DNA of 64,000 nt from Candidatus Poribacteria bacterium. GTDB taxonomy: Bacteria; Poribacteria; WGA-4E; WGA-3G. Of this stretch, positions 30,542-47,303 are shown in pieces (positions within the stretch are counted from its first letter, which is position 1; each line of letters opens with the position of its first letter). The stretch lies in contig OZ251518.1 in the NCBI GenBank assembly GCA_965242965.1, forward strand, positions 1,312,001-1,376,000, given 5' to 3'. The notes beneath the pieces were generated by a model. The model saw only the letters and a program-made list of their open reading frames with translations, was not told the DNA's origin and did not search any database. Position numbers and translations under genes: made by a program.

Positions 30542-33500
30542 GTGACAGAACGCTTACGCAAGACCGAAAATTACCAAAAAATCCTCGCCGCCCTACAAAA
30601 CGGAGAAAGTCTACCGTGGCTCAGCGGCATGTCCACTGCAGCCACCGCGTATCTCTTGGCACACCTGGTGGCGGACTTTCCGGAAAAATCGTTCCTTATT
30701 GTGCTACCGACGCAACAGGAAGCAGAATCGCTGCGTGGTGACATTCAAACGTATCGCGCGCAGTGCCATGGCGGCGCACTGTCCGCCTTGCAAGAGGCAG
30801 AACACCTGATGTTCCCTGCCCGAAACGCCAGCGGTTCGCGCCTCAAGGTACTGTCAAAAAACACTATTGCCGCCCGGATACACTGCTTCCAACATCTGCT
30901 CCAGGCACAGCAACGTAGCGTCATTGTCACAACCAGCCGCGCTTTACAAGATGCGCTGCCAGCGCGCGATATTTTCTCCGCCGCCTTTCCTATCCTGAAA
31001 CAGGGTGATGAGGTTGAACCCGATGCTGTCGAAGCCCTACTCTGCCGAGGTGGTTACCAGCGCGTGGCACTCGTTGAAGTGAAAGGCGAATTTGCCCGCC
31101 GCGGGGACATCCTTGATGTCTATCCCCTCACCGCCGAATCACCCGCGCGCCTAGAGTTTTTCGGCGATGAACTTGACGCTATTCGCGCCTTTGACGCGAC
31201 GACGCAGCGTTCTATTGAACCATTGGACGCTGTTGCCTTATCCCCGATGCGTGAACTCCTCGCAACCGAAGTGTCTCTGGCGTTTTGGCAGGAGCAAACC
31301 CAGGAACTCCTGCAAACCAATGCAACGCCGCAGCTCGTCCAAATAGTCCAAGAGATGACACAGCGTCTCACCGATAGCCTCTCAAAAGAGAACGCGTCTC
31401 TTGGAGACGAATTGGAGGCATACTTACCGCTGCTCTGTCCGGAGACAGCACACCTCCTCGACTACCTGCCAGATGATTTATGCGTTGTCCGCGTTGAACC
31501 GCAGTGGCAAAAACGCGATGCAGCACAACGGTTTGAAGAAATGCAGGCGTTGTATCAACAAACCAATAAGAGAGAACTCTCGGAATCGATGCCTGAGGCA
31601 GTGCAGAAGAAGCAGGATTCCGAACTCGTCCTGCCACCGGCTAAACTGTTCGTCCCTTTTGCGGTGGTAGAAGAGCGGTTAGCGGCGTATCCTATGCTTT
31701 GCGCATCCGTGGCACCGCCGCGCGGAAACTTCGCCTCGGATGTTCTCTCATTTGGGATGAAACCGCTCGCGCTGCCGCGGGGCAGTTATCAGACGGTGCT
31801 GGAGCACCTTCAAAACTGGGTGCGAGAAGGGTATGATGTGGTTATGTTCTGTGAGAGCCCGCAGCAAGCGAAGCGCGTCGCCGAAATGTTAGCCGAACGC
31901 GACATGGTGCTGAAAAGTATCAACGTCGGGGCAATCAGCCACGGGTTTCTTGACGTGTCGCAACGTCTCGTCGTTATCTCCGAGGAGGAACTTTTCGGCA
32001 GCCACCGTTACAATCGGCCCCGTCGTCCGAAATCGGTGCCGGACGGCTCGCCTATTCTCAGCCTGATGGACTTGCAGGTGGGGGATTATGTCGTGCATGT
32101 CTCACACGGCATCGCGATTTATGAAGGCATTCGCCGCTTGACACTTGATGGCGGCTCGCAAGACAGAACGCTGCAGCAAGATTTTATTGTCCTGAAATAC
32201 AGTTCTGGCGATATCCTCTATGTCCCGACAGACCAGGTGGATATGGTTCAGAAGTATATCGGGAGCCAGGAAGACTCTCATAAACCGCGTATTGACAAAC
32301 TCGGCGGCACCGATTGGCATCGCCGAAAAGCGCGAGCGAAAGCATCTATTGAACAACTGGCAGATGAACTCCTGAAATTGTATGCCTTGCGGCAGGCACG
32401 CAAAGGATACGCTTTTCCGGAGGAGGTGCCGTGGCAAGCAGAATTTGAGACGCTGTTTCCTTACCAAGAAACGGAAGACCAGATCCGGGCCATTGAAGAC
32501 GTTACGGCGGACATGGAGACAGAACGCCCGATGGACAGACTCATCTGTGGCGATGTCGGTTATGGTAAAACCGAAGTGGCACTGCGCGCCGCCTTCAAAT
32601 CTGTCATGGCAGAGAAACAGGTGGCAGTGCTTGTGCCAACGACGATTCTCGCGTTGCAACACTATGACACTTTTGAAAAACGTTTCAAGCCGTTTCCTGT
32701 GCAGGTGGAGATTCTCAGCCGTTTCCGCACACGGAAGGAGATAAAAGAGGTAAAAGCCGGGCTCGCCAATGGCACCGTTGACATTGTCATCGGGACGCAT
32801 AGTCTCCTCTCCAAAACGGTTGAATTTGACAACCTAGGGCTCCTGGTTGTTGACGAGGAGCACCGGTTCGGCGTAAAGCACAAAGAGCGCATTAAGCAGG
32901 TGAATGAGACGGTAGACGTGCTAACGTTAACAGCCACGCCGATTCCGCGCACCTTGCACATGTCCCTCGTCGGCATCCGCGATTTCAGCGTGATTAACAC
33001 GCCGCCTGCGAATCGGATGTCCATTCAAACGCATGTCATGGCCTATGCGCCGGAGGTTATCCGCGAAGCGATTCTCGCCGAATTAGCACGCGATGGACAG
33101 GTGTTTTTTGTGCATAACCGCGTCCAGAGTATCCAGACTGTGGCGCAAACCCTTCAGCATCTCGTGCCGGAGGCGCGGGTGGCTGTCGCACACGGACAGA
33201 TGCCGGAACGCGAACTTGAAAGCGTTATGCTTGAGTTTGTCCGTCACAAGCACGATGTTTTGGTTTGCACGATGATTATTGAATCGGGACTTGATATCCC
33301 GAATGTGAACACTATCCTCATTGATAGAGCCGACGCGCTCGGTTTGGCGCAACTCTATCAACTACGTGGGCGCGTCGGGCGCGCCGATGTGCAGGCATAC
33401 GGGTATCTGTTCTACCCCCAGAATCAGGTGATAACCGAGGGCGCGATGAAAAGGCTCCGCGTGATTGAGGAATTCACAGACCTCGGTTCCGGTTTTAAAA

Positions 33501-34105
33501 TCGCCCTTCGGGATTTAGAAATCCGCGGTGCTGGCACACTCCTCGGCGCGGAACAGCACGGACACATCGTCACTATCGGCTATGAACTTTACTGCAAGTT
33601 GCTTGAAGAAGCCGTGCAGAAGTTGAAAGGTGAAGAGGTAGAGGAGCAGGTGGAAACCCGCATCCGTCTGCCGGTAGAGGCATATCTGCCCGATGACTAT
33701 GTGCCGGATAGCCGCCAAAAGGTGGCACTTTACAAGAAAATCGCCGCGTTAAAAAGCGACGAAGCACTTCAGGAACTGCGCGCCGAACTCATAGATAGAT
33801 ACGGCGCGATTCCGAAACCGGCAGCGATGCTGCTTGCCATTGCAAGCCTGAAACCGCTCTGTCAACGGCTCGGCATCACTGCAATTGTCGGCGGCCCCAA
33901 AAAAGGGCGAACATCAACCGTCAAAATCACCTTTGACGAACGAACGCCGAAAATCGATATCCACCGGCTGATGGAGGTAATCCAAAAAGACCCGAGCCTT
34001 CGATTGCTTCCGCCAGCCCATCTTGTTGTTCGCCTCCGGGAATCCCCAGGCGAAACAATGCTTTATGTCTTGGCACAGAAATTGAAAACGCTGCTGCCAG
34101 AATAA
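30542..34105 (+). CDS. mfd: Transcription-repair coupling factor
   Basis: GEFARRGDILD, GDYVVHVSHGI, CGDVGYGKTEVA, DEEHRFG, TATPIPRT, QLRGRVGR, TRCF C-terminus. Confidence 0.98.
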   Translation: MTERLRKTENYQKILAALQNGESLPWLSGMSTAATAYLLAHLVADFPEKSFLIVLPTQQEAESLRGDIQTYRAQCHGGALSALQEAEHLMFPARNASGSRLKVLSKNTIAARIHCFQHLLQAQQRSVIVTTSRALQDALPARDIFSAAFPILKQGDEVEPDAVEALLCRGGYQRVALVEVKGEFARRGDILDVYPLTAESPARLEFFGDELDAIRAFDATTQRSIEPLDAVALSPMRELLATEVSLAFWQEQTQELLQTNATPQLVQIVQEMTQRLTDSLSKENASLGDELEAYLPLLCPETAHLLDYLPDDLCVVRVEPQWQKRDAAQRFEEMQALYQQTNKRELSESMPEAVQKKQDSELVLPPAKLFVPFAVVEERLAAYPMLCASVAPPRGNFASDVLSFGMKPLALPRGSYQTVLEHLQNWVREGYDVVMFCESPQQAKRVAEMLAERDMVLKSINVGAISHGFLDVSQRLVVISEEELFGSHRYNRPRRPKSVPDGSPILSLMDLQVGDYVVHVSHGIAIYEGIRRLTLDGGSQDRTLQQDFIVLKYSSGDILYVPTDQVDMVQKYIGSQEDSHKPRIDKLGGTDWHRRKARAKASIEQLADELLKLYALRQARKGYAFPEEVPWQAEFETLFPYQETEDQIRAIEDVTADMETERPMDRLICGDVGYGKTEVALRAAFKSVMAEKQVAVLVPTTILALQHYDTFEKRFKPFPVQVEILSRFRTRKEIKEVKAGLANGTVDIVIGTHSLLSKTVEFDNLGLLVVDEEHRFGVKHKERIKQVNETVDVLTLTATPIPRTLHMSLVGIRDFSVINTPPANRMSIQTHVMAYAPEVIREAILAELARDGQVFFVHNRVQSIQTVAQTLQHLVPEARVAVAHGQMPERELESVMLEFVRHKHDVLVCTMIIESGLDIPNVNTILIDRADALGLAQLYQLRGRVGRADVQAYGYLFYPQNQVITEGAMKRLRVIEEFTDLGSGFKIALRDLEIRGAGTLLGAEQHGHIVTIGYELYCKLLEEAVQKLKGEEVEEQVETRIRLPVEAYLPDDYVPDSRQKVALYKKIAALKSDEALQELRAELIDRYGAIPKPAAMLLAIASLKPLCQRLGITAIVGGPKKGRTSTVKITFDERTPKIDIHRLMEVIQKDPSLRLLPPAHLVVRLRESPGETMLYVLAQKLKTLLPE

Positions 34106-34214
34106 TTTCGTTTTCTGTTTCTGTGCTAAAATATCGTAGGGCGGGGGCATGTCCTCCGCCACTCTTATCGCGAGGGAGCACCTGTCCCTCGTCATTTTAA
34201 AGGAGATACATCAC

Positions 34215-35180
34215 ATGAAAAAAACGCTTATTGTATGCGCAATTGTTGCCGTAGCCTGTCTCGCGACGTGGCAGTTCGTTCAATCCGAACATCATGAGCA
34301 GTCGGCAGCGGACGTTGCGCAAATGGACAGCCAGATTATTGTGGCTGAATACCAATGGAACGGTGAGCCCTATCAGATTTCGCTGGAGGCCCTGAACGCC
34401 GCCATCGCGGAATTGCCTGTCTACCGGCAGCAAAATTACGAGAGCCGGGCAGATAAGGCGGAATACTTGGAGGAACTGATTGAGGAGAAACTCAAAATCC
34501 TCCGCGCCGCCGACGAAGGGTTTGACAAACTCCCCGGGCACCTTAAGAAGTTAGATGACTACACGCATCAACTCATGGTTGAGAAGCTGACCGAGGCGGA
34601 AGTTGATGCGAAAGTCACCTATACCGATGAGGAACTCATGGCGCATTATCAGGAAAACCTGAGCGACTACATTGAGCAGGCGAAGGTGCGTGCAACCTGC
34701 ATTACGCTTGAAGACGAAGACCTGGCGAATGAAACGCTTGACGTAATCATCGCGGGGAAGGACATCGTTGTGAGCGCGACAGAACTCTCCGAAGCAGGCA
34801 AACTCGCCAGAGGCCCCGGCACCAATCGGGATGAACCGGGCAATACGTTCTTCTTCGCGAAATCTGACTCGGCGCAATGGGCGGAATTCATTGATGCCGC
34901 CTTCGCGCAAGAAATCGGCGAGATAACCGATACCGTCTTTGAAACCGAAGTCAGCGAGAAAACCTTCTATCTCATTTTCCGCAAAGAAGAACATCGGCCG
35001 GAGAGACAGAAGGAATTCGCTGAAGTGAAAGACGACATCCAGCGCGAAATTAAACGGAGCAAGAAGCGCGTCCGAATCAACGAATGGATAGAGGAAATCT
35101 CGGCGCGCGGCAAACTGCAACTCTTTCCTGAAAACATCCCTGCACCTCCCAAACCGGAGGAAGCAGAATCAGAACAGTAA
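34215..35180 (+). CDS. Exported parvulin-type PPIase / PrsA-like foldase
   Basis: Signal peptide; KVRATCI..FIDAAF..GEITD; RBS AAGGAG; paralog of the next gene. Confidence 0.8.
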   Translation: MKKTLIVCAIVAVACLATWQFVQSEHHEQSAADVAQMDSQIIVAEYQWNGEPYQISLEALNAAIAELPVYRQQNYESRADKAEYLEELIEEKLKILRAADEGFDKLPGHLKKLDDYTHQLMVEKLTEAEVDAKVTYTDEELMAHYQENLSDYIEQAKVRATCITLEDEDLANETLDVIIAGKDIVVSATELSEAGKLARGPGTNRDEPGNTFFFAKSDSAQWAEFIDAAFAQEIGEITDTVFETEVSEKTFYLIFRKEEHRPERQKEFAEVKDDIQREIKRSKKRVRINEWIEEISARGKLQLFPENIPAPPKPEEAESEQ

Positions 35181-35397: not shown

Positions 35398-36411
35398 TTG
35401 AAAATGATAAACAGAATTATGAAGACAACCGGCGGCGCGCTGTTACTCGCGATGCTTGCCGTGCTACCCTTCCTCACCGGCTGCGGGGACAAAGCCATCG
35501 GTGCCGATGGAACCGTCATCGCAGCCTATGAATGGGACGGTAAAAAGCACCACATCACGCTGGAGGAGATGCAGCAGGAGATTAGCGAGCTCCCGGCATA
35601 TAAGCAGCGTCAGTATCAGGACAAAGAGGGGTTGGAAACCTACATGCTCCTCATGGCGGAGAGTCGCCTCATCCTCAGCCTCGCTCGCGACCAGAAATTG
35701 AACGAAGACCCGGGTATCCTCAAGAAGGTCCAGGACTATCTTCACGAGCTCATGGTAAAGAAAATTACCACACAAGAGGTTGACGACAAACTTGCGTTGA
35801 CAGAGGACGACTACCTACGCTATTACGAAGCGCATAAGGAAGACTATGTCCGTCCCGCGCAGGTGCGGCTGTTGTGCATCACGATTACCGATAAAGCACG
35901 CGCCGATGAAGTTTTTGCCGAAATTAAGGCTGGCAAAGATATCGCAGAAGCCGCCCAAGAGCTCTCCGATAGAGGCGAACTCGTCGGGCCCGGCGCGAAT
36001 CCCGCATCACCCGGCGATACGGATTACATCAGCCGCGATGCCTTCCCGGAAGGAACTGAGCCGTTTCTTGATGCCGCCTTCGCCGCCGAGATTGGCGAAC
36101 TGCACGACGGTGTCATTGAAGTTGATGTCCAAGGACAGCAATATTTCATGATGTTCCGAAAAGACGAGGCACGGGATGCTTACCAGAAGCCTTTTGAGGA
36201 AGAGGATGTCCGGAAGAATGTCGTGCGGAAGGTGGAACGCGAGAAGCGGAATGCCCTCATGAAAGAGTGGGTAACCCAACTCCGCGACCGCGCGGAAGTC
36301 AAGACTTATACCGACCGGATTCCGGAGGCAGAAGAGGAAACTTCTGAACCCGAACCGGAGGAGACTGAAGAGGAGATGGAAGAGGCACCCGCGGAGAATC
36401 AGCTTAAATAA
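35398..36411 (+). CDS. Parvulin-type PPIase lipoprotein (PrsA-like)
   Basis: Lipobox FLTGC; QVRLLCI, AEAAQELS, FLDAAF..GEL; acidic tail. Confidence 0.82.
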   Translation: MKMINRIMKTTGGALLLAMLAVLPFLTGCGDKAIGADGTVIAAYEWDGKKHHITLEEMQQEISELPAYKQRQYQDKEGLETYMLLMAESRLILSLARDQKLNEDPGILKKVQDYLHELMVKKITTQEVDDKLALTEDDYLRYYEAHKEDYVRPAQVRLLCITITDKARADEVFAEIKAGKDIAEAAQELSDRGELVGPGANPASPGDTDYISRDAFPEGTEPFLDAAFAAEIGELHDGVIEVDVQGQQYFMMFRKDEARDAYQKPFEEEDVRKNVVRKVEREKRNALMKEWVTQLRDRAEVKTYTDRIPEAEEETSEPEPEETEEEMEEAPAENQLK

Positions 36412-36574
36412 TTCCGCGTGCCTGTAAGGCGGGGGGTTGTCCCCCGCCATCCTGCAGTCTGAATTGGGCATCGGAGCCGTAGGAGAGACCTCTGGTCTCG
36501 ATGCAGCAGCCTATTGTCGTCTCGGCGTTGTCCCAGGTCCCGATGCCCCTACGCACCCCCAAGGAGGTGTATCC

Positions 36575-37879
36575 ATGAAAAGCAAAATTACTGCAACACT
36601 CGTGCTGAGTCTGTGCTGCATCACTATCGGCATGCAGCACGCCACCGCACGCACCCTTGATAGAATCGTCGCGCATGTCAACGACGATGTCGTCACACAG
36701 TGGGAGTTGGACACTTTAGTGAAACAACGCGCGATGGAGTTACAGCAGGTCTACCGCTTCAGCGAGCGCGAGGCACAACAGGAAGCAGAACGGCAACGCG
36801 CCGAACTTTTGGACAGGCTCGTCCGGCAAATGCTTCTACTAGAAGCCGCACTCACCCTGAAAGTCACTGTCACCGACTCTGAAGTGGAGCAATATATCAA
36901 GGATTTTAAAAGCCGGTATCAGATTGAAACCGACGAAGCACTCCGGGAGCAGCTGAACCGGGAGGGCCTCACCCTCGTCGCGTTTCGCGAGCAATCGGAA
37001 CGGAACCTGAAATCTGAGAAACTGGTGATGGGCAGAATTGTCCCGCGGCTTCAGATTCGGGACAGCGAGGTCCAACAATTTTTTGAAGAGAATCGGGAGC
37101 AGCTGCCAACAAAAGCAGATAAGGTGCGGTTGCGGCATCTCTTTATCGCCTTCAAACCGACCGAGGCAGATCGGGATGCCGCGCGGGAGAAGGTGAACGC
37201 TGCGCGGGATGCTATCGCCGCAGAGCCCACCGAATTTGAAACTGTCGCCCAGCGTTATGCCCCATCGCAACACGTAAACTCGCAGGTAGGCAAGTTAATT
37301 GAGGCAGGCAAGGAAGAACTGAACAGTTTTCCGGAAACCTTCCAGACGGTGCTTGCAACGCTCAACGCAGGCGAGATGAGCGAACCGATCGAGGCAAACG
37401 AGGGACTCTATGTTTTCCGAGTGGAAACGAAAACTGACGAGATGACTGGATTTCGGTATTTCATCGTTCCGCTGGGACTGAGCGAGGCCGCCATCCAAGC
37501 CGCCCGCGAACACAGCGCGGAACTCTACAAGAAATTGGAGGCAGGCGCAGATTTCAACGCGCTCACCTCCCAACATTCCGACGATACAGAAACGAAGGAA
37601 AATGGGGGAGACCTCGGGGTTCGTTCCCTCGCCGAACTGAATCCTAAGACGCGACAAATCGTTGAGGCACTTGACACGGGGGCTTACAGTCAACCCGTTG
37701 AAACTTCCTCCGGACTGCACATCTTCAAAGTTGACGAACGGAATACCCCAGACCTGAGCGAGGCGGAGAAACGGCAAATCATCTCTATCCTGCGCCAACA
37801 ACGTTTTCAGGAAGAGTGGGCTGCTTACACCGACCGGCTCATGGAAAACGCTTACGTGAAAATCAAGTTGAATGAATAG
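36575..37879 (+). CDS. surA: SurA-like periplasmic chaperone (SurA_N plus two parvulin domains)
   Basis: DRIVAHVNDDVVT, VRLRHL, HSDD..NGGDLG, SQPVETSSGLHIFKV; RBS AAGGAGG; adjacent to lptD. Confidence 0.85.
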   Translation: MKSKITATLVLSLCCITIGMQHATARTLDRIVAHVNDDVVTQWELDTLVKQRAMELQQVYRFSEREAQQEAERQRAELLDRLVRQMLLLEAALTLKVTVTDSEVEQYIKDFKSRYQIETDEALREQLNREGLTLVAFREQSERNLKSEKLVMGRIVPRLQIRDSEVQQFFEENREQLPTKADKVRLRHLFIAFKPTEADRDAAREKVNAARDAIAAEPTEFETVAQRYAPSQHVNSQVGKLIEAGKEELNSFPETFQTVLATLNAGEMSEPIEANEGLYVFRVETKTDEMTGFRYFIVPLGLSEAAIQAAREHSAELYKKLEAGADFNALTSQHSDDTETKENGGDLGVRSLAELNPKTRQIVEALDTGAYSQPVETSSGLHIFKVDERNTPDLSEAEKRQIISILRQQRFQEEWAAYTDRLMENAYVKIKLNE

Positions 37880-40800
37880 GAAATCCGTGCCAAACCTTTT
37901 GCCCAAACTATTGAAATCCTGCCGATACTTTGTCTGCTGCGTTCTTGTAGCCATCGCGGGGCTCCTTGTTGTCCCGGTACCACTCATCGCGCAAGCCCCC
38001 GATGAGGTGCCGGAGACAGAGGAAAAAGCACTTCCGGACACCGGTGAGGAACCGCAGACAGAGGAAACCCCCCAGGCCCCATCTCCATCCCCATCTCCGT
38101 CTCCCTCTGAAGACGCAGCACCCGGAGAGGCGCAACCTGAAGGGGAGGAGAAGAGCGAACCGGGGGAAGAAGAGCAGAAACCTGAGGGGTTGGACCCGGA
38201 GCAGATGACTCCCGACCCGGGTGTCGTCATCGGCGATGGCGATGAGATGGTGATGCATGATAATTTCGTCCAAATCCACGGCAACGCGCTCATCAAATAC
38301 GGCGACATCATTTTGCGGGCGGACCACGTTTGGGCTGACTTCAACGAGAATCTCATGCGCGCATCGGGCAATGTCCATCTCATCTCTGGTAACGAGGAGA
38401 CCTTCTCCGATGAACTCGTGTTTAATCTGGAGACAAAAAAGGGCATCGCACGCAACGGGTTTACCTACACCGACCCTTGGTATTTCGGCGGCAGCGATGT
38501 CTTTAAAATCGACGAAAAGAAATCCTATATCCGTAGTGCGACTTTGACGACGTGCTCGCTGAAATATCCGCACTACTATTTCAGCGTTTCGCGCGTGATT
38601 GTCCGGGTTAATGAAGAGATGATTGCGAAGAATATCGTCCTGCGCATCGGTGGATATCCGCTCTTCTATTTCCCCGCTATCCGCCGTGATCTTCGGAAAG
38701 ACAAGGTTGCCAAAATCATTGTGAAAGTCGGCACCGATAGTTATCAGGGGCCCTATATCAGTATCATCCAACCTATCGCGCGCGAACGGCGTTACGATGG
38801 CGCGCTCCTCTACGACGAAAGCGCGAGACGCGGACGCGGCTTCGGATTTGAAGGCAAATATCGTTTCAACGACACGCAATTCCGCGAAATTTATATCCCT
38901 ATCCCGCCAGATGCAACGTCCGCGCAACGGACAAAACTGGAAGAAAAGGCGAAGGAGATACATGAACGGCTTGAGGGGGAACACGATAGGTATTGGCTCA
39001 AGCAACTCTTCCTCCCTTATGAGATTACGGAGGATGATGTCAACCGGGCCAAAGAGACAGCGGAAGAGCTCCTCAAGCAACTTAAAGAGGAAGATGCCGA
39101 CTTTGCGGAACTTGCGCAACGCAATTCGGACCACGATACTCGGTATGAGGGCGGCGATTTAGGGTTTGTCGCCCGTGGTGAACGCATTGAGGAAAAAACG
39201 CCTGCAACATCTAAAACGCAAAACGCGCCAGAAGCGAAGACAACACCGGAAACCGATGGAGAGGAAATCACGCCTGAAAGCAGTCCAGCAGAAACCACTC
39301 CTGAAGACACACCGACAGATGCGGAAACGGAAGCAACAGAGGCACCACCCGCCGGAAAACTTAAACTGGATCCGATTTTAGAGGAAGCCGCCTTTCAATT
39401 GGCAGAAGGCGAAATCAGTTCTGTCTTAAAGACAGAGTCTGCCTTTCACATCCTCAAAGTGGAGCGCGTGCTTGATGTCTACGGCGAACGCGAAATTCAA
39501 CTCCGCCGGATTGACATCGCCATCGCTGCCAGCGACGAAACACAGCAGAAACTCCGCGAAACAACCGATATGATTCACACACGCGCGCTGGAAGGCGAAA
39601 CTTTTGAGCAACTCGCCGCGGAATTCGATGAAGCGACATTATCGGAAGTGAACAATGGCGACGGACTACCGCTCAGCGAGATGGATGCCAGTTGGCGGTA
39701 TTCTGTCAGACGCTTGGAGAAGCCGGGCGACATCACGCAACGTCGGCCCGTTTCCACACCAGAAGGACTCTACCTCTTCCAATTGACTGAGAAAGAGGAG
39801 ACACCGGCTTTTGAGGAACTCGCTGAGGAACTTGACGCAGAATGGGAGACGTTCCTTGAAGAAGTGATGTCTTCAACGGAAGAACCAAAGGAAGGGGAGG
39901 AATCGCCTGAGCCCGACACCTCTGCAGAGACTGGGCCTGTTACAACTGAAGTAGCATCGCAGGAAAGTGCGGAAATCGCAAAAAGTGAATCGTCTGAACC
40001 GCCAGCTCTACCTGAAGAGGAGGAACCAGCAGAATTGAGTCCAGAGGACGAACCGCCTTCAGCGGAAGAGAACGCGGATTCTGAAGCAGACGCGCAAGAT
40101 GAATCGGACGAAGAAGGCGAAGAGGAAGAACCGTTTACCGTTTATCGAAAACACGGGTATCGCGGCAGGTGGGAAGACCCGAGTGCCGTCGCATCAGAAG
40201 CGCAAAGTCTATACGGCGGCGAATTTAGCAAAGTCATTCCCACTAAAAAATCGTTCCGGCTCATCAAGGTGGACAAAAAGCGCACCTATCGTGGAGATAT
40301 CTACTTCTATGGGGCAGACCACTATTCCTTTGACAGGCAAAGTCCCTCTCGCATCGGCAGACGCTGGAACATGCGGTGGGGACACACGCAATCGCTCTAT
40401 ACCCCGTGGGACAGCCGCCGAGAAGGCCGCAGGCCCATCAGTTTCACCGGACGGACAGAATGGCGCGCGCTCAATTACAAAGAGGAATTGAAACTACCCG
40501 GCGAATCCACGCTCAACACGTTTGGACTCCTCACTTACGGAGCCGCTTTCTCCGCCTTGGACGAAGGAGACCGGGATGAGAACGGCAACCTCCGGTTCTC
40601 TCGACAACCGACCGGGGATTTCACCGGACGGTTGGAGGTGCGGCATATCCACGACTTCACCGGCGAAGGCACAACATCGCTTCAAAAACTGCCGCAACTC
40701 ACCTTGAACTTTTCACGGATGCGGTTTAGCGGATTGCCGGTGTTTAGAACCATCAATTCCAATCTCGTGACGCTTGCGGAGAAAGCCGCCACAGACGAAC

Positions 40801-41969
40801 CCTTTCTCTCACTATTTGCTGTCCCTACCTTGGAAAACACCAGTTTCGATTTGGACATTGAGCTCGGCAATTTCTACCGGCAGGTTTACAAAAGCACACT
40901 CGTCGGAGATGAGAGGGACGTGTTTCTGCAAACGATGGACATGGGGTTCGATCTGCGCAAACAATCAACGCTGCTGATTACGCCTTTGCGTGAACTGCTC
41001 CTAAACATGAATCTCAATACGAATGTGATATGGCACGACCAGGACCAGGAGAAAAACCGCAACATTGTGCGCGGTGTCTATAGTTTCCGAGGCTCTGCCA
41101 CGAACACGCTCTTCCGTGTCTATAATATCAATTTCATCCCGCGTATGCGCAAACTGCGCCACGAGATGCAGTCCACGGTGACGTTTGATTATCAGCCGCC
41201 TATCGATGAGAACAAGAATCTCTATCCATTCGGACCGAGCACCTATTTCTATGAACGGAAATCGCTCTCCTACAATTTTGATACCAACATCGAGATTAAG
41301 ACGCAGCGGAGTCAATCGCCGCACCGCGTTCTCCAGCTTCGGACGCGGCTTCGCGCCGATTTTACCGAATTCGACCCGCTCTACAAACGGCGATATGAAC
41401 CGATTGAAAGCGATTTCACCTTCATCCCGCTGCCCAGTCGGAGTCTGAATATGACCGTGCGCTTCACGCACGATCCGAACCCAGATCCGGATGATAACAA
41501 GACTTTCAAGATGGTTGGGCTTCGTTCCAACATCCGTTATACGCGTCAGAGTTGGAATGTGAGTATCGGGAGTTCGTTTAGCAAACGGCTTACTTCGCGG
41601 CAAGCCTCCCGCTCCATCACGGCGAGTGGGCGGTACCGTTTTAGCGAACATCTCGATTTCGATGTCAGTCTCATCTATTATCCGATTGATAGGCAATTCT
41701 ATTCGCAGCGGGTTAGTATCAACCGGAACTTGCACGATTGGAACTTGCGGATTTCGTGGAGTCGTGTCGGCATCAAGCGCGGCGAACCGCCGTATAACAA
41801 TGTCCGCCAAGACTTTACGTTCCAAATTAGTCTGATTCCGGAGCCGGCTGTTTCGATGGGTGTTGGCTACGATGCGACGACGGACACTTGGGGTATCCGC
41901 ACGTTGCCAGCGGGTTCGCCTTACAATGCCTTTGGCGTTGGCAATTCGTTGGGACGTTCTTACTTCTAA
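37872..41969 (+). CDS. lptD: LptD-like LPS assembly protein with internal parvulin-PPIase insertion
   Basis: OstA-like jellyroll (LRADHV, ASGNV, FNLETKKG), TTCSLKYPHYY, GGYPLFYFP, barrel strands, C-terminal aromatic residue; insert about 38875-40285. Confidence 0.85.
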   Translation: MNRKSVPNLLPKLLKSCRYFVCCVLVAIAGLLVVPVPLIAQAPDEVPETEEKALPDTGEEPQTEETPQAPSPSPSPSPSEDAAPGEAQPEGEEKSEPGEEEQKPEGLDPEQMTPDPGVVIGDGDEMVMHDNFVQIHGNALIKYGDIILRADHVWADFNENLMRASGNVHLISGNEETFSDELVFNLETKKGIARNGFTYTDPWYFGGSDVFKIDEKKSYIRSATLTTCSLKYPHYYFSVSRVIVRVNEEMIAKNIVLRIGGYPLFYFPAIRRDLRKDKVAKIIVKVGTDSYQGPYISIIQPIARERRYDGALLYDESARRGRGFGFEGKYRFNDTQFREIYIPIPPDATSAQRTKLEEKAKEIHERLEGEHDRYWLKQLFLPYEITEDDVNRAKETAEELLKQLKEEDADFAELAQRNSDHDTRYEGGDLGFVARGERIEEKTPATSKTQNAPEAKTTPETDGEEITPESSPAETTPEDTPTDAETEATEAPPAGKLKLDPILEEAAFQLAEGEISSVLKTESAFHILKVERVLDVYGEREIQLRRIDIAIAASDETQQKLRETTDMIHTRALEGETFEQLAAEFDEATLSEVNNGDGLPLSEMDASWRYSVRRLEKPGDITQRRPVSTPEGLYLFQLTEKEETPAFEELAEELDAEWETFLEEVMSSTEEPKEGEESPEPDTSAETGPVTTEVASQESAEIAKSESSEPPALPEEEEPAELSPEDEPPSAEENADSEADAQDESDEEGEEEEPFTVYRKHGYRGRWEDPSAVASEAQSLYGGEFSKVIPTKKSFRLIKVDKKRTYRGDIYFYGADHYSFDRQSPSRIGRRWNMRWGHTQSLYTPWDSRREGRRPISFTGRTEWRALNYKEELKLPGESTLNTFGLLTYGAAFSALDEGDRDENGNLRFSRQPTGDFTGRLEVRHIHDFTGEGTTSLQKLPQLTLNFSRMRFSGLPVFRTINSNLVTLAEKAATDEPFLSLFAVPTLENTSFDLDIELGNFYRQVYKSTLVGDERDVFLQTMDMGFDLRKQSTLLITPLRELLLNMNLNTNVIWHDQDQEKNRNIVRGVYSFRGSATNTLFRVYNINFIPRMRKLRHEMQSTVTFDYQPPIDENKNLYPFGPSTYFYERKSLSYNFDTNIEIKTQRSQSPHRVLQLRTRLRADFTEFDPLYKRRYEPIESDFTFIPLPSRSLNMTVRFTHDPNPDPDDNKTFKMVGLRSNIRYTRQSWNVSIGSSFSKRLTSRQASRSITASGRYRFSEHLDFDVSLIYYPIDRQFYSQRVSINRNLHDWNLRISWSRVGIKRGEPPYNNVRQDFTFQISLIPEPAVSMGVGYDATTDTWGIRTLPAGSPYNAFGVGNSLGRSYF

Positions 41970-42235: not shown

Positions 42236-42589
42236 ATGCCGATGAAAGAGATAAGCTGGGTTGGGGATTCTCGTGAGAAACTCCGAAACTTTCCTCAGTC
42301 CGCAAGAAGAACAATAGGTGAGGCGTTAAGTTTCGTACAAGAAGCACGTCAGCGACACCCAAACGCCAAACCGTTAAGAGGAATAGGTTCGGGCGTATGG
42401 GAAATCGTCGCGCGTTATGATACGAACACCTACCGGGCGGTTTATACCGTCAATATTGGCGAACGCATCTATGTGCTTCATGCATTCCAGAAGAAGTCTT
42501 CTCAAGGCATCCGCACGCCGAAACGCGAGATTGACTTGATTAAACAACGTCTGAAAATGGCGCAATGGATGGAGGCAAACAATGAGTGA
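42236..42589 (+). CDS. RelE/ParE family toxin (Gp49/HigB-like)
   Basis: AKPLRGIGSGVWEI..TYRAVY..YVLHAFQKKS..TPKREIDLI. Confidence 0.92.
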   Translation: MPMKEISWVGDSREKLRNFPQSARRTIGEALSFVQEARQRHPNAKPLRGIGSGVWEIVARYDTNTYRAVYTVNIGERIYVLHAFQKKSSQGIRTPKREIDLIKQRLKMAQWMEANNE

Positions 42590-42911
42590 AACAATCAAAA
42601 TTGAGGAAAGTTCCGGAAACGTGTTTCTGGACATAGGATTCCCCGAAGAGGAAGCGGAACGTCTACTACTGAGATCAAAACTCGCATGTGAAATCTATGG
42701 CCTTCTTGAGAAACACAAACTCACGCCGACAAAAGTGGAGGCACTCCTTGGGCTGGATGCGGTTGGTGTAACCCGTTTGAAGAACGCGGAGTTCGACCAT
42801 TTCAGTGTAGAACAGCTGTTCACGTTCCTGAACCGCCTAGGGCGTAATGTTGAGGTGCGCATCACGCCAGCAGAACATACTAGTGGACATCAGCGGGTTG
42901 TTCTCGCTTAA
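42582..42911 (+). CDS. XRE-family HTH antitoxin (HigA-like)
   Basis: SSGNVFLDIGF..FSVEQLFTFLNRLG; overlaps the toxin stop; toxin-first order. Confidence 0.88.
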   Translation: MSETIKIEESSGNVFLDIGFPEEEAERLLLRSKLACEIYGLLEKHKLTPTKVEALLGLDAVGVTRLKNAEFDHFSVEQLFTFLNRLGRNVEVRITPAEHTSGHQRVVLA

Positions 42912-44237: not shown

Positions 44238-47200
44238 CTACGCGAGGAGAGGCGGCAATTCCCCAACCAACCGCACCGTCTCTTCACTAACATGCATCAC
44301 TTGCCCAACCAAACGCACAATATATTGCCCATCTTCACCATTCGGATCGGAGACAATACCACTCCCATTCGGATCGGGTTTGACGCGATACCGATCGATG
44401 AGCCACTCTAATGCCGAACGAGTGCCCAAACGATAATCGAATACCGCCGGCGGAATGTCCACTACCGTCAAAGAATCATTGTAACGGAGTTGCGTTTTGT
44501 CGGCAGATAATTCCATCTTCTCGACGCGCCAATTGAGAGGAGGGGTTTCGATGAGGTTTGGCATCACGTCAAGGGTTTCATAATTGACGTGCAAATCTGC
44601 CAAAGCGCGCCCGATGTCAACAAATCCCCAGAAATCCGGTGCGAAAGGCAGATGTGGCAAGTCGTGCTTGAGGTTGACCTGATATGTCTCGCGGTATTCG
44701 GGATGATGCAAAATCGCGTAATTGTAGTGGAAAATGTCCCATTTGGTGATGGTTTCGTCACCGTAATGCGTTCGGAAGTGGGATAATGCCCAGTCGGTGA
44801 TGTTTTCGCGGCGATTAGTGCCATCTTCATCGTAAGTGTAGAAGGGAAAGCACTGCGTCTTTTCAAGAAAATCAATGCATGGAATCTTGTCTGTCATGAG
44901 TGCCTGAAACGGTTTGTTGCTGGCAGTGCCGCTGACGCAGATGACGCGATTTTCCTTTTCTGATGCAACCGTGGGAAAGATAGAAGGCATCACATAAACC
45001 CTTTGGGTCATCAACCTGTCAAAATAGAGATGCATTTTTGTGAACGGACGATACAGGGAGATGCGGCTCTTTTCGGGAGAAAACTCGACCCGCGTTCCCT
45101 TTCCCAATGCGGCTTTCAGCCGGTCTGTCCACTTAATGTTCCGGCGTTCTTGACTCACAAAATCGTTGACAGAGAGCTGCCGGTCGGTGCGCCGTTCCCA
45201 CCGAGATGTCTCGGCGTTGTAGAACTCTATCATTCGCGCCATGTTCGCTGCCAATGTTTCCGGATTAAAATGGTAAGCCCAGGCATCGCGCGCCGTTATC
45301 ACGCCGAGACTATAGGTTTTAAAAATCGTGCCTTCTGTCTCGCCTTTCGCTGCTTTCGCTGACTGGGTGCCCATCGGCAGGAACGTCTCAAAATCAGAAC
45401 GGAGCCCTTCGGTGAGCCATATCTGGCGCGCGTTCGGTTGAATCTCTCGCCACTTGACATTGCCGAGGTGCGCGTTTTCTGTGAGAAATTGAAACGTGTG
45501 TTCTTTCGGCAACGCCGCCGCCTCATCGCTATAGAGGATACTTGCGCTGCCCTCGCGCGGCTGCCCCGTTTTCACGAGGAAACTAATGCTCACCCCGACA
45601 GTAATCCCGAACACGTTGGAATTGCCCGGCTGTCCCTTGCGGATGTTGCCCCCGAGGTCTAGCACGTAAAGCCAGTCAAATTCCTCGGCGAGACACTGCC
45701 GCAAGCCATCGAACATTTCGCTGTGGATAAAACTATTGTTGGTGATGAGGGCGATGATGCCTTCTTTGCCGACTTTATCGGATGCCCAGCGGAGGGATTT
45801 GACATAAGGATCGTAGAGTTTGTTCTTGAGCCGCGCGGTGGAGGCGGCGACGTAAGTGGCGCGCACACGGTTATCAACAGCCTCGTGTTGCCGGTTCTGA
45901 TTGTTATCGTTCTCGTTTTGCTGTCCGGCATTGTAAGGCGGATTCCCGATGACGACGAACATTGGGGTTTCCTTCTGCTCTCGAACGCGCATCGTATTCT
46001 CTGGCGTAAAATAGGCGAATTCGCCAGTCTGATTCGGCGCATCCATGAGCCCGAAAGTATCAAACGTATCCACGAAGCAGATGTGCTTGAAGGGTTCGTA
46101 TCGCCCCATTTTTTCATAATAGGCGTGCTCAATGTTCATCGTGGCGATGTAGTAAGGCAACAACATTACCTCGTTGCAGTGGAGTTCGCCTTTATACTTC
46201 TTGTCCAGCGCGATGCCGGGGATGTCCTGCATCAAGCGCACGATGAAGTTGCCGGTGCCGACAAACGGATCGATGATATGGACACCGGTATCCGCGAGCG
46301 ATTTGCCGAAATGGGTTTTCAGGAGATGCTGAACGCTGTTTACCATGAAGTCGACGATGGGTTGCGGCGTGTAAACCACCCCGTGTCTATCGGCATCCTT
46401 GACAGAAAAGTCTTGGAAGAAGCGTTGGTAAAGGGTATTAAGGAAGTCTTGCTTCTGGGAATAATCTGTCAACGTCCGCGCCGTATTTTCCACCGCTTCG
46501 TAGAAGGGTTTGAGTTCGCTGAAAAATTGTGAGCGGTTGAGTGCCTCCCGGGTCAGGACATCAATCACCTTCTCAATCTCGCTTGCGATGACGTTTCGGC
46601 GCGTGAAATCGGGGTTATCAAAGACGGTGCGGAAGATGCGTTCCGTCATCAGGTGCTGCGCGAGCATGCGTTCCACCTCTGTCTCGGCGAGATTCGGGTT
46701 TATTGCGTCTCGGCACTGCTGATGGAAGTGCGTGAACGCCTCGCGGAATTCGGGGGTATTCTGGCGTTCGGTTTGGATGAGCGTCTCCAATTTCGCGCCG
46801 AGTTCGGGAATGGTATCTTGGAACGTTTCCACGGCATCATCCCACTCGGCGAGATTTTCCTCGGTGTAGGTGAAAAAAGTTTCAAGGAGTTGGATGAGAT
46901 TGCGCGGTTCGGTGATGTCCACATCCAAGATAAGCGCGCCGTTTTGGTAGAGGATGGCGCGGTGCGGCGTTTGGAAAATGATGTTTTTGGCGGGGTAGCC
47001 GGTGGCAAATTTCTGTTGGGTTTCGGTGGAGAGGTCATCGAGGAGATCTTTCGCTTCCCAGTGGCCGAAGATGAGTCCGAAGTCGGTGACGATTTCGCCG
47101 TCGATGCGGATGTGGTTTCCGTGTGGTGTGGTGCGGGTTTTCTCGCATATCAGCGTGAGGTTGCGTTGTCCGCAGTAGTATTGCAAGAGCGTTTGGAAGG

Positions 47201-47303
47201 CGACGCGGATGGCACCTTCATGTTGCGCGCCGAGTTTCGTGAACTGCTTGAGTTCGGCGTAATAGTTTTTTATGGGTTTGTGTGTGGGTTTGATGTTGAG
47301 CAT
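44238..47303 (-). CDS. Single-chain restriction-modification enzyme (Type IIG / Type ISP-like, no helicase)
   Basis: N-terminal IDG..WEAK nuclease, GVVYTP, DPFVGTG (motif I) before GNPPY (gamma-class order), C-terminal YRPF..YxLG..SALEW..RY as in LlaBIII-like TRD. Confidence 0.88.
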   Translation of the reverse strand: MLNIKPTHKPIKNYYAELKQFTKLGAQHEGAIRVAFQTLLQYYCGQRNLTLICEKTRTTPHGNHIRIDGEIVTDFGLIFGHWEAKDLLDDLSTETQQKFATGYPAKNIIFQTPHRAILYQNGALILDVDITEPRNLIQLLETFFTYTEENLAEWDDAVETFQDTIPELGAKLETLIQTERQNTPEFREAFTHFHQQCRDAINPNLAETEVERMLAQHLMTERIFRTVFDNPDFTRRNVIASEIEKVIDVLTREALNRSQFFSELKPFYEAVENTARTLTDYSQKQDFLNTLYQRFFQDFSVKDADRHGVVYTPQPIVDFMVNSVQHLLKTHFGKSLADTGVHIIDPFVGTGNFIVRLMQDIPGIALDKKYKGELHCNEVMLLPYYIATMNIEHAYYEKMGRYEPFKHICFVDTFDTFGLMDAPNQTGEFAYFTPENTMRVREQKETPMFVVIGNPPYNAGQQNENDNNQNRQHEAVDNRVRATYVAASTARLKNKLYDPYVKSLRWASDKVGKEGIIALITNNSFIHSEMFDGLRQCLAEEFDWLYVLDLGGNIRKGQPGNSNVFGITVGVSISFLVKTGQPREGSASILYSDEAAALPKEHTFQFLTENAHLGNVKWREIQPNARQIWLTEGLRSDFETFLPMGTQSAKAAKGETEGTIFKTYSLGVITARDAWAYHFNPETLAANMARMIEFYNAETSRWERRTDRQLSVNDFVSQERRNIKWTDRLKAALGKGTRVEFSPEKSRISLYRPFTKMHLYFDRLMTQRVYVMPSIFPTVASEKENRVICVSGTASNKPFQALMTDKIPCIDFLEKTQCFPFYTYDEDGTNRRENITDWALSHFRTHYGDETITKWDIFHYNYAILHHPEYRETYQVNLKHDLPHLPFAPDFWGFVDIGRALADLHVNYETLDVMPNLIETPPLNWRVEKMELSADKTQLRYNDSLTVVDIPPAVFDYRLGTRSALEWLIDRYRVKPDPNGSGIVSDPNGEDGQYIVRLVGQVMHVSEETVRLVGELPPLLA

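Follow-up and report, generated by a model that had tools for sequence, protein, structure and literature searches.

LptD, the outer-membrane insertase of lipopolysaccharide (LPS), is essential and an antibiotic target, and in Escherichia coli it ranks among the outer-membrane proteins that are hardest to fold and most dependent on the chaperone SurA. A 64,000-nucleotide stretch of DNA from a Candidatus Poribacteria bacterium (contig OZ251518.1, positions 1,312,001 to 1,376,000; hereafter the window, taken at its full length) encodes a homologue of LptD that carries parvulin domains within the same polypeptide, which raises the question of what these domains are, on which side of the outer membrane they lie, and what they may contribute to the protein in which they are embedded. 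The gene (37872..41969, plus strand) is a single uninterrupted frame of 1365 amino acids (aa) plus stop; coordinates are given in the numbering of the window, and residue numbers refer to the 1365-aa window protein unless a homologue is named. An earlier, sequence-only reading had placed an insert of about 470 aa at 38875-40285 and had viewed the protein as an LptD with a built-in parvulin chaperone. The strings quoted in that reading are present in one frame, and its limits agree with those obtained here by model and alignment mapping (38871..40280, plus strand; residues 334-803, 470 aa). The present analysis indicates that the insert is a nested array of parvulin units that is predicted to occupy a periplasmic turn of the LptD barrel.

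Sequence families recognise LptD on either side of the insert, in agreement with what had been supposed for its flanks. The NCBIfam LptD model matches residues 122-340, before the insert (E 8.5e-8, far under the equivalog cut-off of that model), and Pfam LptD_2 matches residues 987-1118, behind it, at 23.4 bits versus a cut-off of 22.5; PF03968 reaches 12.9 bits on the window protein, which is under its cut-off. The N-terminal beta-jellyroll (beta-taco; residues 119-273, 38226..38690, plus strand), delimited by the NCBIfam match and by the model of the compact homologue P0276, is recognised weakly at the sequence level and by its fold in the homologue model, in which it comprises 12 strands and the LptA structure 2r19 is among the Foldseek matches (TM score on the target 0.62). 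For P0276 itself, Pfam gives Rotamase matches only and no LptD family; its modelled barrel, described below, is further evidence that the flanks are those of an LptD. When 1.84 billion representative proteins were scanned exhaustively with HMMER, the best 150 matches were listed. These are mostly proteins of 600-900 aa that match the region from the jellyroll to beta4, with alignments ending near query positions 165-178, corresponding to residues 331-343, and the one canonical representative examined (P0153) has Pfam LptD_2, LptD and LptD_N. Apart from the cluster of the protein itself, the nearest named Atlas clusters represent LptD families from other phyla, which lack Rotamase.

The genome to which the window belongs (5.7 Mb in two contigs, 94.7% complete) encodes two LptF/LptG proteins, LpxC and seven Omp85-family proteins, and would therefore make and export LPS. 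The window gene provides its only LptD_2 match, a PF04453 profile search of this genome gave no match, and a search for a barrel paralogue in it found none. The window gene is thus the single LptD of this bacterium and, judged by homology, from which this role is taken, its outer-membrane LPS insertase. The lone other strong match of the LptD_N/OstA type in the genome is an open reading frame (ORF) of 424 aa (L002; G000:C1:4094442-4094750, minus strand, E 4.5e-12), which is unusually long for LptA or LptC. Few members of the family carry a database name; those that do are assigned to Candidatus Poribacteria as 'peptidylprolyl isomerase' or 'hypothetical protein'.

The architecture of the barrel was modelled with AlphaFold2 on the compact homologue P0276 (1104 aa, 39% identical to the window protein and colinear with it), using 121 sequences, which yielded a pLDDT of 88 and a pTM of 0.69. 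The strand order in this model is 12 jellyroll strands, 4 barrel strands, the insert, 22 barrel strands, and two short C-terminal strands. The four barrel strands that precede the insert (P0276 residues 210-216, 220-231, 235-244, and 248-260) were mapped onto residues 283-333 of the window protein (38718..38870, plus strand; IVKVGTD, GPYISIIQPIAR, YDGALLYDES, and GRGFGFEGKYRFN), and strands beta5-beta26, located with the model, Pfam LptD_2 and Foldseek, span residues 804-1321 (40281..41834, plus strand). At the two borders, RRGRGFGFEGKYRFND ends at residue 335, and YRGDIYFYG begins at residue 806 and is followed by RRWNMRWGH. Model strand 248-270 runs unbroken from beta4 into the insert, where it is followed by a helix (277-294), and model strand 562-586 runs unbroken from the insert into beta5. 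Since both connecting strands are continuous, the module would sit on a two-stranded ribbon and not on a flexible linker. A Foldseek search with the model returned full-length LptD structures as the top 14 matches listed (E 1e-17 to 4e-23, TM score on the target 0.49-0.62), with peptidylprolyl isomerase (PPIase) and SurA chains ranking after the LptD structures.

The side of the membrane on which the insert lies was derived by registering the strand count to that of E. coli LptD. In a HMMER alignment to E. coli chain 9i9z_A (784 aa), P231 (in FLIPNA) and P246 (in LPYYWNI) align into model strands 1 and 2, and two papers place P231 in beta1 and P246 in beta2 of E. coli LptD. At the opposite end of the barrel, the LH(C/D)W position, which corresponds to E. 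coli C724/C725 in the alignment, lies between model strands 24 and 25; the beta24-beta25 connection of E. coli LptD is described as a periplasmic turn. With the count thus registered from both ends, the even-to-odd connections are expected to be periplasmic. On this model, the insert occupies the periplasmic beta4-beta5 turn, equivalent to the five-residue turn SQAGA of E. coli, and the module is predicted to lie under the rim of the barrel, four strands from the beta1/beta26 lateral gate. The earlier suggestion that the site corresponds to a short periplasmic turn in E. coli is thereby borne out, and the continuity and sidedness of the barrel, for which that reading had called for structure prediction, emerge from the P0276 model as 4 + 22 strands with a periplasmic insert. 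A predicted complex of the jellyroll (P0276 residues 40-205) with the insert (residues 259-573) scored 0.01 relative to a mark of 0.32, which provides no evidence either way.

Within the insert, Pfam detects Rotamase (E 1.3e-25, in three stretches), Rotamase_3 (5.1e-19), and Rotamase_2 (1.3e-8); the solved structures that match the parvulin units include PrsA, Pin1, and SurA chains, and the P0276 model has a pLDDT of at least 89 across the insert. The arrangement of the units was examined with a parvulin hidden Markov model (HMM) that was built from units B and C only and run on eight proteins, and this HMM, together with the Pfam matches, recovered three parvulin units, in keeping with the up to three that had been recognised by eye. 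Unit B (residues 373-536, 38988..39479, plus strand) is complete, with a strong full-length match (HMM positions 2-102 over residues 372-533), a Pfam Rotamase match at 385-439, and alignments to PrsA that are split into 389-438 and 499-531. Unit C (residues 539-642, 39486..39797, plus strand), placed by HMM and alignment, is complete but degenerate: its match is full-length (HMM positions 3-105 over residues 541-644, iE 2.1e-17), and its GGDLG-type motif reads NGDGLP. The segment directly after beta4 (residues 334-367, 38871..38972, plus strand), which the model resolves into a first strand and a long helix, matches HMM positions 2-36 in seven of the eight proteins, with an iE of 0.015 in the window protein. 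The segment after unit C matches HMM positions 39-103 in compact homologues (iE about 1e-13 to 1e-15), and in the window protein positions 67-103 only (residues 768-804, iE 0.0015). As positions 2-36 precede units B and C and positions 39-103 follow them, a further parvulin, unit A, would be split between its first and second helices, and the secondary-structure pattern of the P0276 model agrees with such a nesting of B and C inside A. The insert is accordingly modelled as a nested array, in which two complete parvulins, B and C, are predicted to lie inside the split parvulin A. The C-terminal part of unit A, placed by HMM and model (residues 647-803, 39810..40280, plus strand), ends in the strand SFRLIKVDKK, which runs on into beta5.

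Two of the units are split by acidic linkers, as had been noticed from the sequence. Linker 1 (residues 438-495, 39183..39356, plus strand) is a Thr/Pro/Glu-rich disordered stretch of 58 aa that the window's genus has added within unit B, and is present in three of the 26 rows of alignment A3 (P0001, P0013, and P0017), i.e., in the closest relatives only. Linker 2 (residues about 655-754, 39834..40133, plus strand; alignment columns 860-1090) is an acidic disordered stretch of approximately 100 aa within unit A, where it replaces the GGDLG region; it is found in the wider family and differs in length between strains, through three in-frame indels located at 39893-39986 (insertions of GGT and of GTT, and a deletion of 9 nt). 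A tandem-repeat scan did not recover the acidic linkers as DNA tandem repeats. The deepest lineages carry a fourth parvulin in the beta10-beta11 turn (P0279 residues 788-915, P0280 residues 757-876, and P0131; P0279 is encoded at locus L031 of G001 and P0280 at locus L032 of G003), which is circularly permuted, HMM positions 24-104 being followed by 2-38. At this site the window protein has a helical segment only (residues 956-983, 40737..40820, plus strand; model helices 711-727 and 733-736).

The array has features of the parvulin tandem of SurA. A Poribacteria-only profile had residues 168-364 (P1-P2) of E. coli SurA as its best solved match (E 6e-16), and units B and C (profile positions 356-557) align colinearly with P1 and P2 of SurA (1m5y), which resides in the same compartment and is encoded by an adjacent gene. 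Unlike SurA, the window module is built into a membrane protein, its tandem is enclosed by a third parvulin, and it lacks a match to the N-terminal domain: SurA_N, SurA_N_2, and SurA_N_3 gave no match in the 1365-aa protein, whereas the neighbouring SurA has all three. The window protein is therefore not a SurA. In a domain tree without support values, unit B is placed near SurA P1, and an origin from surA is not claimed. With respect to catalysis, active parvulins typically have a histidine pair (H59 and H157 in Pin1). None of the 26 aligned rows has the first-strand His in any of the three units, the position being F, I, or Y-type, and the last-strand His is sporadic: the window protein has it in unit B, where deep lineages show E, V, Y, or F instead. 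This constitutes a weak test of activity. Moreover, units C and A of the window protein have lost the GGDLG-type motif.

A word-indexed search yielded 368 relatives, the best 120 of which are 60-98% identical and 1243-1417 aa in length. Conservation across the phylum, which the sequence-only reading had listed as a check, was established: the architecture was matched in 174 of the 176 species genomes of the phylum Candidatus Poribacteria and in all 133 phylum genomes that are at least 90% complete and at most 5% contaminated, and the two non-matching genomes are assemblies of 600 and 730 contigs. Five deep lineages, which belong to other families and to another class, encode jellyroll, parvulins, and barrel in one frame of 1120-1319 aa. 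Identity to eight deep-lineage rows amounts to 41-43% for unit B and the N-terminal half of unit A, 29% for unit C, 45% for the jellyroll, and 34% for the barrel; the linkers are mostly absent from these rows and are not conserved. As judged from the alignments, the conservation of the architecture equals that of the barrel. In the domain tree (no support values), the unit B sequences of all lineages group in a single clade, as do those of unit C, so that the array appears to be older than the diversification of the phylum. Among the 150 listed matches of the exhaustive scan, phmmer detected a parvulin in 11, to which Pfam adds P0130; nine of the parvulin-bearing listed matches are of the LptD type, and the seven that were placed are each closest (47-67%) to a Poribacteria lineage. 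The longer of the remaining matches among the best 150 have N-terminal extensions, in which phmmer detected no parvulin. By identity to phylum genomes, a confinement of the fusion to the Poribacteria is well supported, albeit indirectly. Two of these points go beyond the earlier reading, namely the nesting of the units, with A split by B and C, and the occurrence of the feature as a trait of the whole phylum.

The contiguity of the locus was verified with contigs of four independent studies over 38600-40500. All four bridge the 5' junction of the insert and two of the four bridge the 3' junction, and no assembly joints were seen across this interval. Contig breaks occur only in the acidic linker, at about 39895-40000, and no listed contig covers the whole 1901-nt stretch. 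These junction-bridging contigs, in combination with the same frame in 174 of the 176 genomes, exclude the misassembly that had been named as a possible refutation.

The canonical LptD structures used for comparison (4q35, 9kn3, 5iv9, 7omm, and 8h1r) represent the LptDE translocons of E. coli, Shigella, Klebsiella, Neisseria, and Acinetobacter. As judged from the homologue model, the window protein shares with them the N-terminal jellyroll and the 26-strand barrel, and it is likewise encoded by a single-copy gene in an LPS-making genome; lptD adjoins surA in E. coli as it does in the window. In contrast to canonical LptD, a 470-aa parvulin array stands where E. coli has its five-residue turn, the sequence has diverged to the extent that LptD_2 barely passes its cut-off, and the turn Cys is lost. 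The gate prolines of E. coli are not found at the aligned columns either: the columns of P231 and P246 hold V/I and I, and a Pro that is invariant (P301 in the window protein) stands two residues further along beta2 than the aligned gate-proline column. Of the Cys pair by which canonical LptD connects its jellyroll with the beta24-beta25 turn, the jellyroll Cys is kept (C228, 38553-38555), and the Cys of the turn is replaced by Asp (D1289 in LHDW, 41736-41738), as it is in 26 of the 35 other insert-bearing rows of alignment A4. Both Cys are present in 87 of the 95 canonical LptD rows versus three of the 36 insert-bearing rows, all three of which represent the deepest lineages. A precedent for the placement, at the level of principle, is the plug domain of the chaperone-usher ushers PapC and FimD, a folded domain in a periplasmic barrel turn that gates the pore. 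In both cases a periplasmic turn of an outer-membrane barrel accommodates a globular domain; the plug differs in fold and in job, and nothing indicates that the window parvulins enter the lumen.

The lack of a conserved His pair, the lack of the SurA core, and the rigid mounting of the module together make a chaperone-like role plausible and catalysis doubtful, and leave a structural role as a live rival. Our preferred explanation, to which we assign about an even chance of being correct, is that the insert is a non-catalytic, fixed binding module of the SurA-parvulin type that assists the assembly of the LptD barrel. From a fixed periplasmic position next to the gate side of the barrel, the module would hold or guide unfolded beta-strand segments, above all those of LptD's own very large barrel; it would act during barrel assembly at BAM, and it may cooperate with free SurA and with the two PpiD-like proteins encoded just upstream. 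A more far-reaching proposal is that the array is an obligatory built-in assembly or stability factor that replaces LptE-assisted folding, the interdomain disulfides, and LptY/LptM, which would result in an LptE-less translocon with its biogenesis coupled in cis; this we consider rather improbable.

Several observations speak against an LptD barrel with a periplasmic nested array acting as a chaperone-like module. AlphaFold2 modelling of residues 166-1365 of the window protein with 52 close homologues gave a pLDDT of 44, and the topology of the window protein is taken from the homologue and the alignment because its own model was poor. The alignment underlying the P0276 model held canonical LptDs, which may bias the barrel toward an LptD shape, and the Poribacteria-only profile found no LptD among the best 60 of its 67 matching solved chains. 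For the N-terminal half of unit A the HMM gives a weak match (iE 0.013-0.32), and in one of the eight proteins no match at all. With respect to function, the chaperone activity of SurA resides mainly in its N/C core, and the insert comes without the N-terminal part of this core. A chaperone arm that swings freely is hard to reconcile with the strand-continuous mounting, and with a complete free SurA still encoded in the genome, there is no obvious need for a built-in chaperone.

The main rival to this assisting module holds that the insert has no chaperone role and is a structural element that braces or positions the beta-taco and the gate side of the barrel, which would replace the disulfides, LptY, and LptM. 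We regard this as possible, although somewhat unlikely. The passage of beta4 and beta5 into unit A without a flexible linker, and the location of the site four strands from the beta1/beta26 gate, would both suit a brace. The same holds for the turn Cys, which is common to the canonical rows and for which the window protein and 26 further insert-bearing rows have Asp; however, the deepest lineages keep both Cys and carry the insert as well as the fourth parvulin, and the insert is therefore not simply a replacement of the disulfide. The LptE profile PF04390 has no match in the own genome, which would likewise suit a brace, but this silence means little because the same insensitive profile detects LptE in only three of 14 control genomes. 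Three to four copies of a client-binding fold would, moreover, be an odd choice for a brace. A periplasmic stabiliser of this kind has a counterpart in E. coli, in which LptY (YedD) and LptM are accessory lipoproteins that act on the beta-taco/gate region of LptD, LptY binding and stabilising the beta-taco (10.1101/2025.04.10.648201). Like the window insert they are elements at the periplasmic side of LptD, and unlike the insert they are separate small lipoproteins, which the accessible part of that report does not describe as parvulins.

An active prolyl isomerase anchored in the outer membrane, in which at least one unit isomerises client proteins at the inner face of this membrane, is an unlikely interpretation. 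The units clearly belong to the PPIC-type family, units B and A (and in some proteins C) of the compact deep-lineage members keep GGDLG-type motifs, and 'peptidylprolyl isomerase' is the name under which the databases file the family. This is opposed by the absence of the first-strand His from A, B, and C in 26 of the 26 rows, the sporadic occurrence of the last-strand His, and the loss of the GGDLG-type motif in units C and A of the window protein.

That an extracellular loop displays the insert on the outside of the cell, where it might for instance serve a sponge symbiont in contacts with its host, is very improbable: long insertions in barrels are in general commoner in outer loops and the Poribacteria are symbionts, to which 'sponge metagenome' labels point, but four strands precede the insert, and even-to-odd connections are periplasmic by the register that was checked via P231, P246, and C724/C725. 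Finally, an artefact by which a misassembly or a missed stop joined a SurA-like gene to lptD can practically be dismissed, as the insert shares its frame with LptD parts before and after it, the same frame occurs in the 174 genomes, many of which consist of one or few contigs, and independent contigs bridge both junctions.

The remaining parts of the protein are of lesser consequence for the role of the assisting module. A probable signal peptide (residues 1-41, 37872..37994, plus strand), read by eye from the translation, is hydrophobic and ends in ..PLIAQ. It is followed by an acidic Pro/Glu-rich low-complexity linker before the jellyroll, delimited by alignment (residues 42-118, 37995..38225, plus strand), which differs in length among relatives, with columns 140-250 mostly gaps in deep lineages, and which contains a 6-nt short repeat at 38077-38108 according to a repeat scan. 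A conserved C-terminal extension beyond beta26 (41835..41966, plus strand), recognised in model and alignment, consists of two short strands (1069-1075 and 1080-1086 in P0276) and a low-confidence tail with a pLDDT below 50 from P0276 residue 1086.

The lptD gene is clustered with three other parvulin genes, as had been recognised before, which are all located upstream on the same strand. These encode a PpiD-like protein with an N-terminal hydrophobic anchor (34149..35180, plus strand; Rotamase_2), a second PpiD-like protein with a lipobox-like LTGC near its N-terminus, as read from the sequence (35398..36411, plus strand; Rotamase_2), and SurA (36437..37879, plus strand), in which Pfam and NCBIfam detect SurA_N and two Rotamase stretches. 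The stop of surA overlaps the start of lptD by 8 nt, and a SurA-like ORF is found directly upstream of lptD in three deep lineages. The true start of surA probably lies downstream of the annotated TTG, since the signal-peptide-like MKSKITATLVLSL is found from residue 47 onward. Neither parvulin of the free SurA has both His that are typical of active parvulins (P1, RHLFI ... LYVFRV; P2, RYFIV ... LHIFKV), and the only Rotamase matches in the own genome are SurA, the window LptD, and one ORF of 660 aa. Acidic Glu/Pro-rich stretches recur at the N-terminus of LptD (37995-38225) and at the C-terminal ends of both PpiD-like proteins, which suggests that such stretches are a habit of the lineage and not specific for LptD. 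Further upstream lies mfd (30542-34105, same strand as lptD). The genes downstream of lptD are unrelated, and comprise a Gp49 (HigB-like) gene that overlaps an HTH_37 gene (42236-42911, plus strand), which is likely a toxin-antitoxin pair, an SDR gene, and a gene for a Type ISP restriction-modification enzyme of 1021 aa (44238-47303, minus strand). Promoter and terminator scans found no more sites than were found in shuffles.

No published description of an LptD-parvulin fusion, or of a Poribacteria LptD, was found in a search that covered only a minority of the subscription journals, and a nested parvulin array in a periplasmic turn of LptD thus appears to be undescribed in the literature searched. 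With names that mislead, and with Pfam LptD models that match barely or not at all, automated surveys would wrongly score the Poribacteria as lacking LptD. Outer-membrane barrels in which nested domains are inserted into a periplasmic turn are rare, and the array represents one such case. Moreover, the presence of chaperone-type domains in the LptD of an entire phylum, apparently since before its diversification, would constitute a natural experiment on the assembly of giant barrels, as well as on the organisation of the periplasmic side of the LPS translocon.

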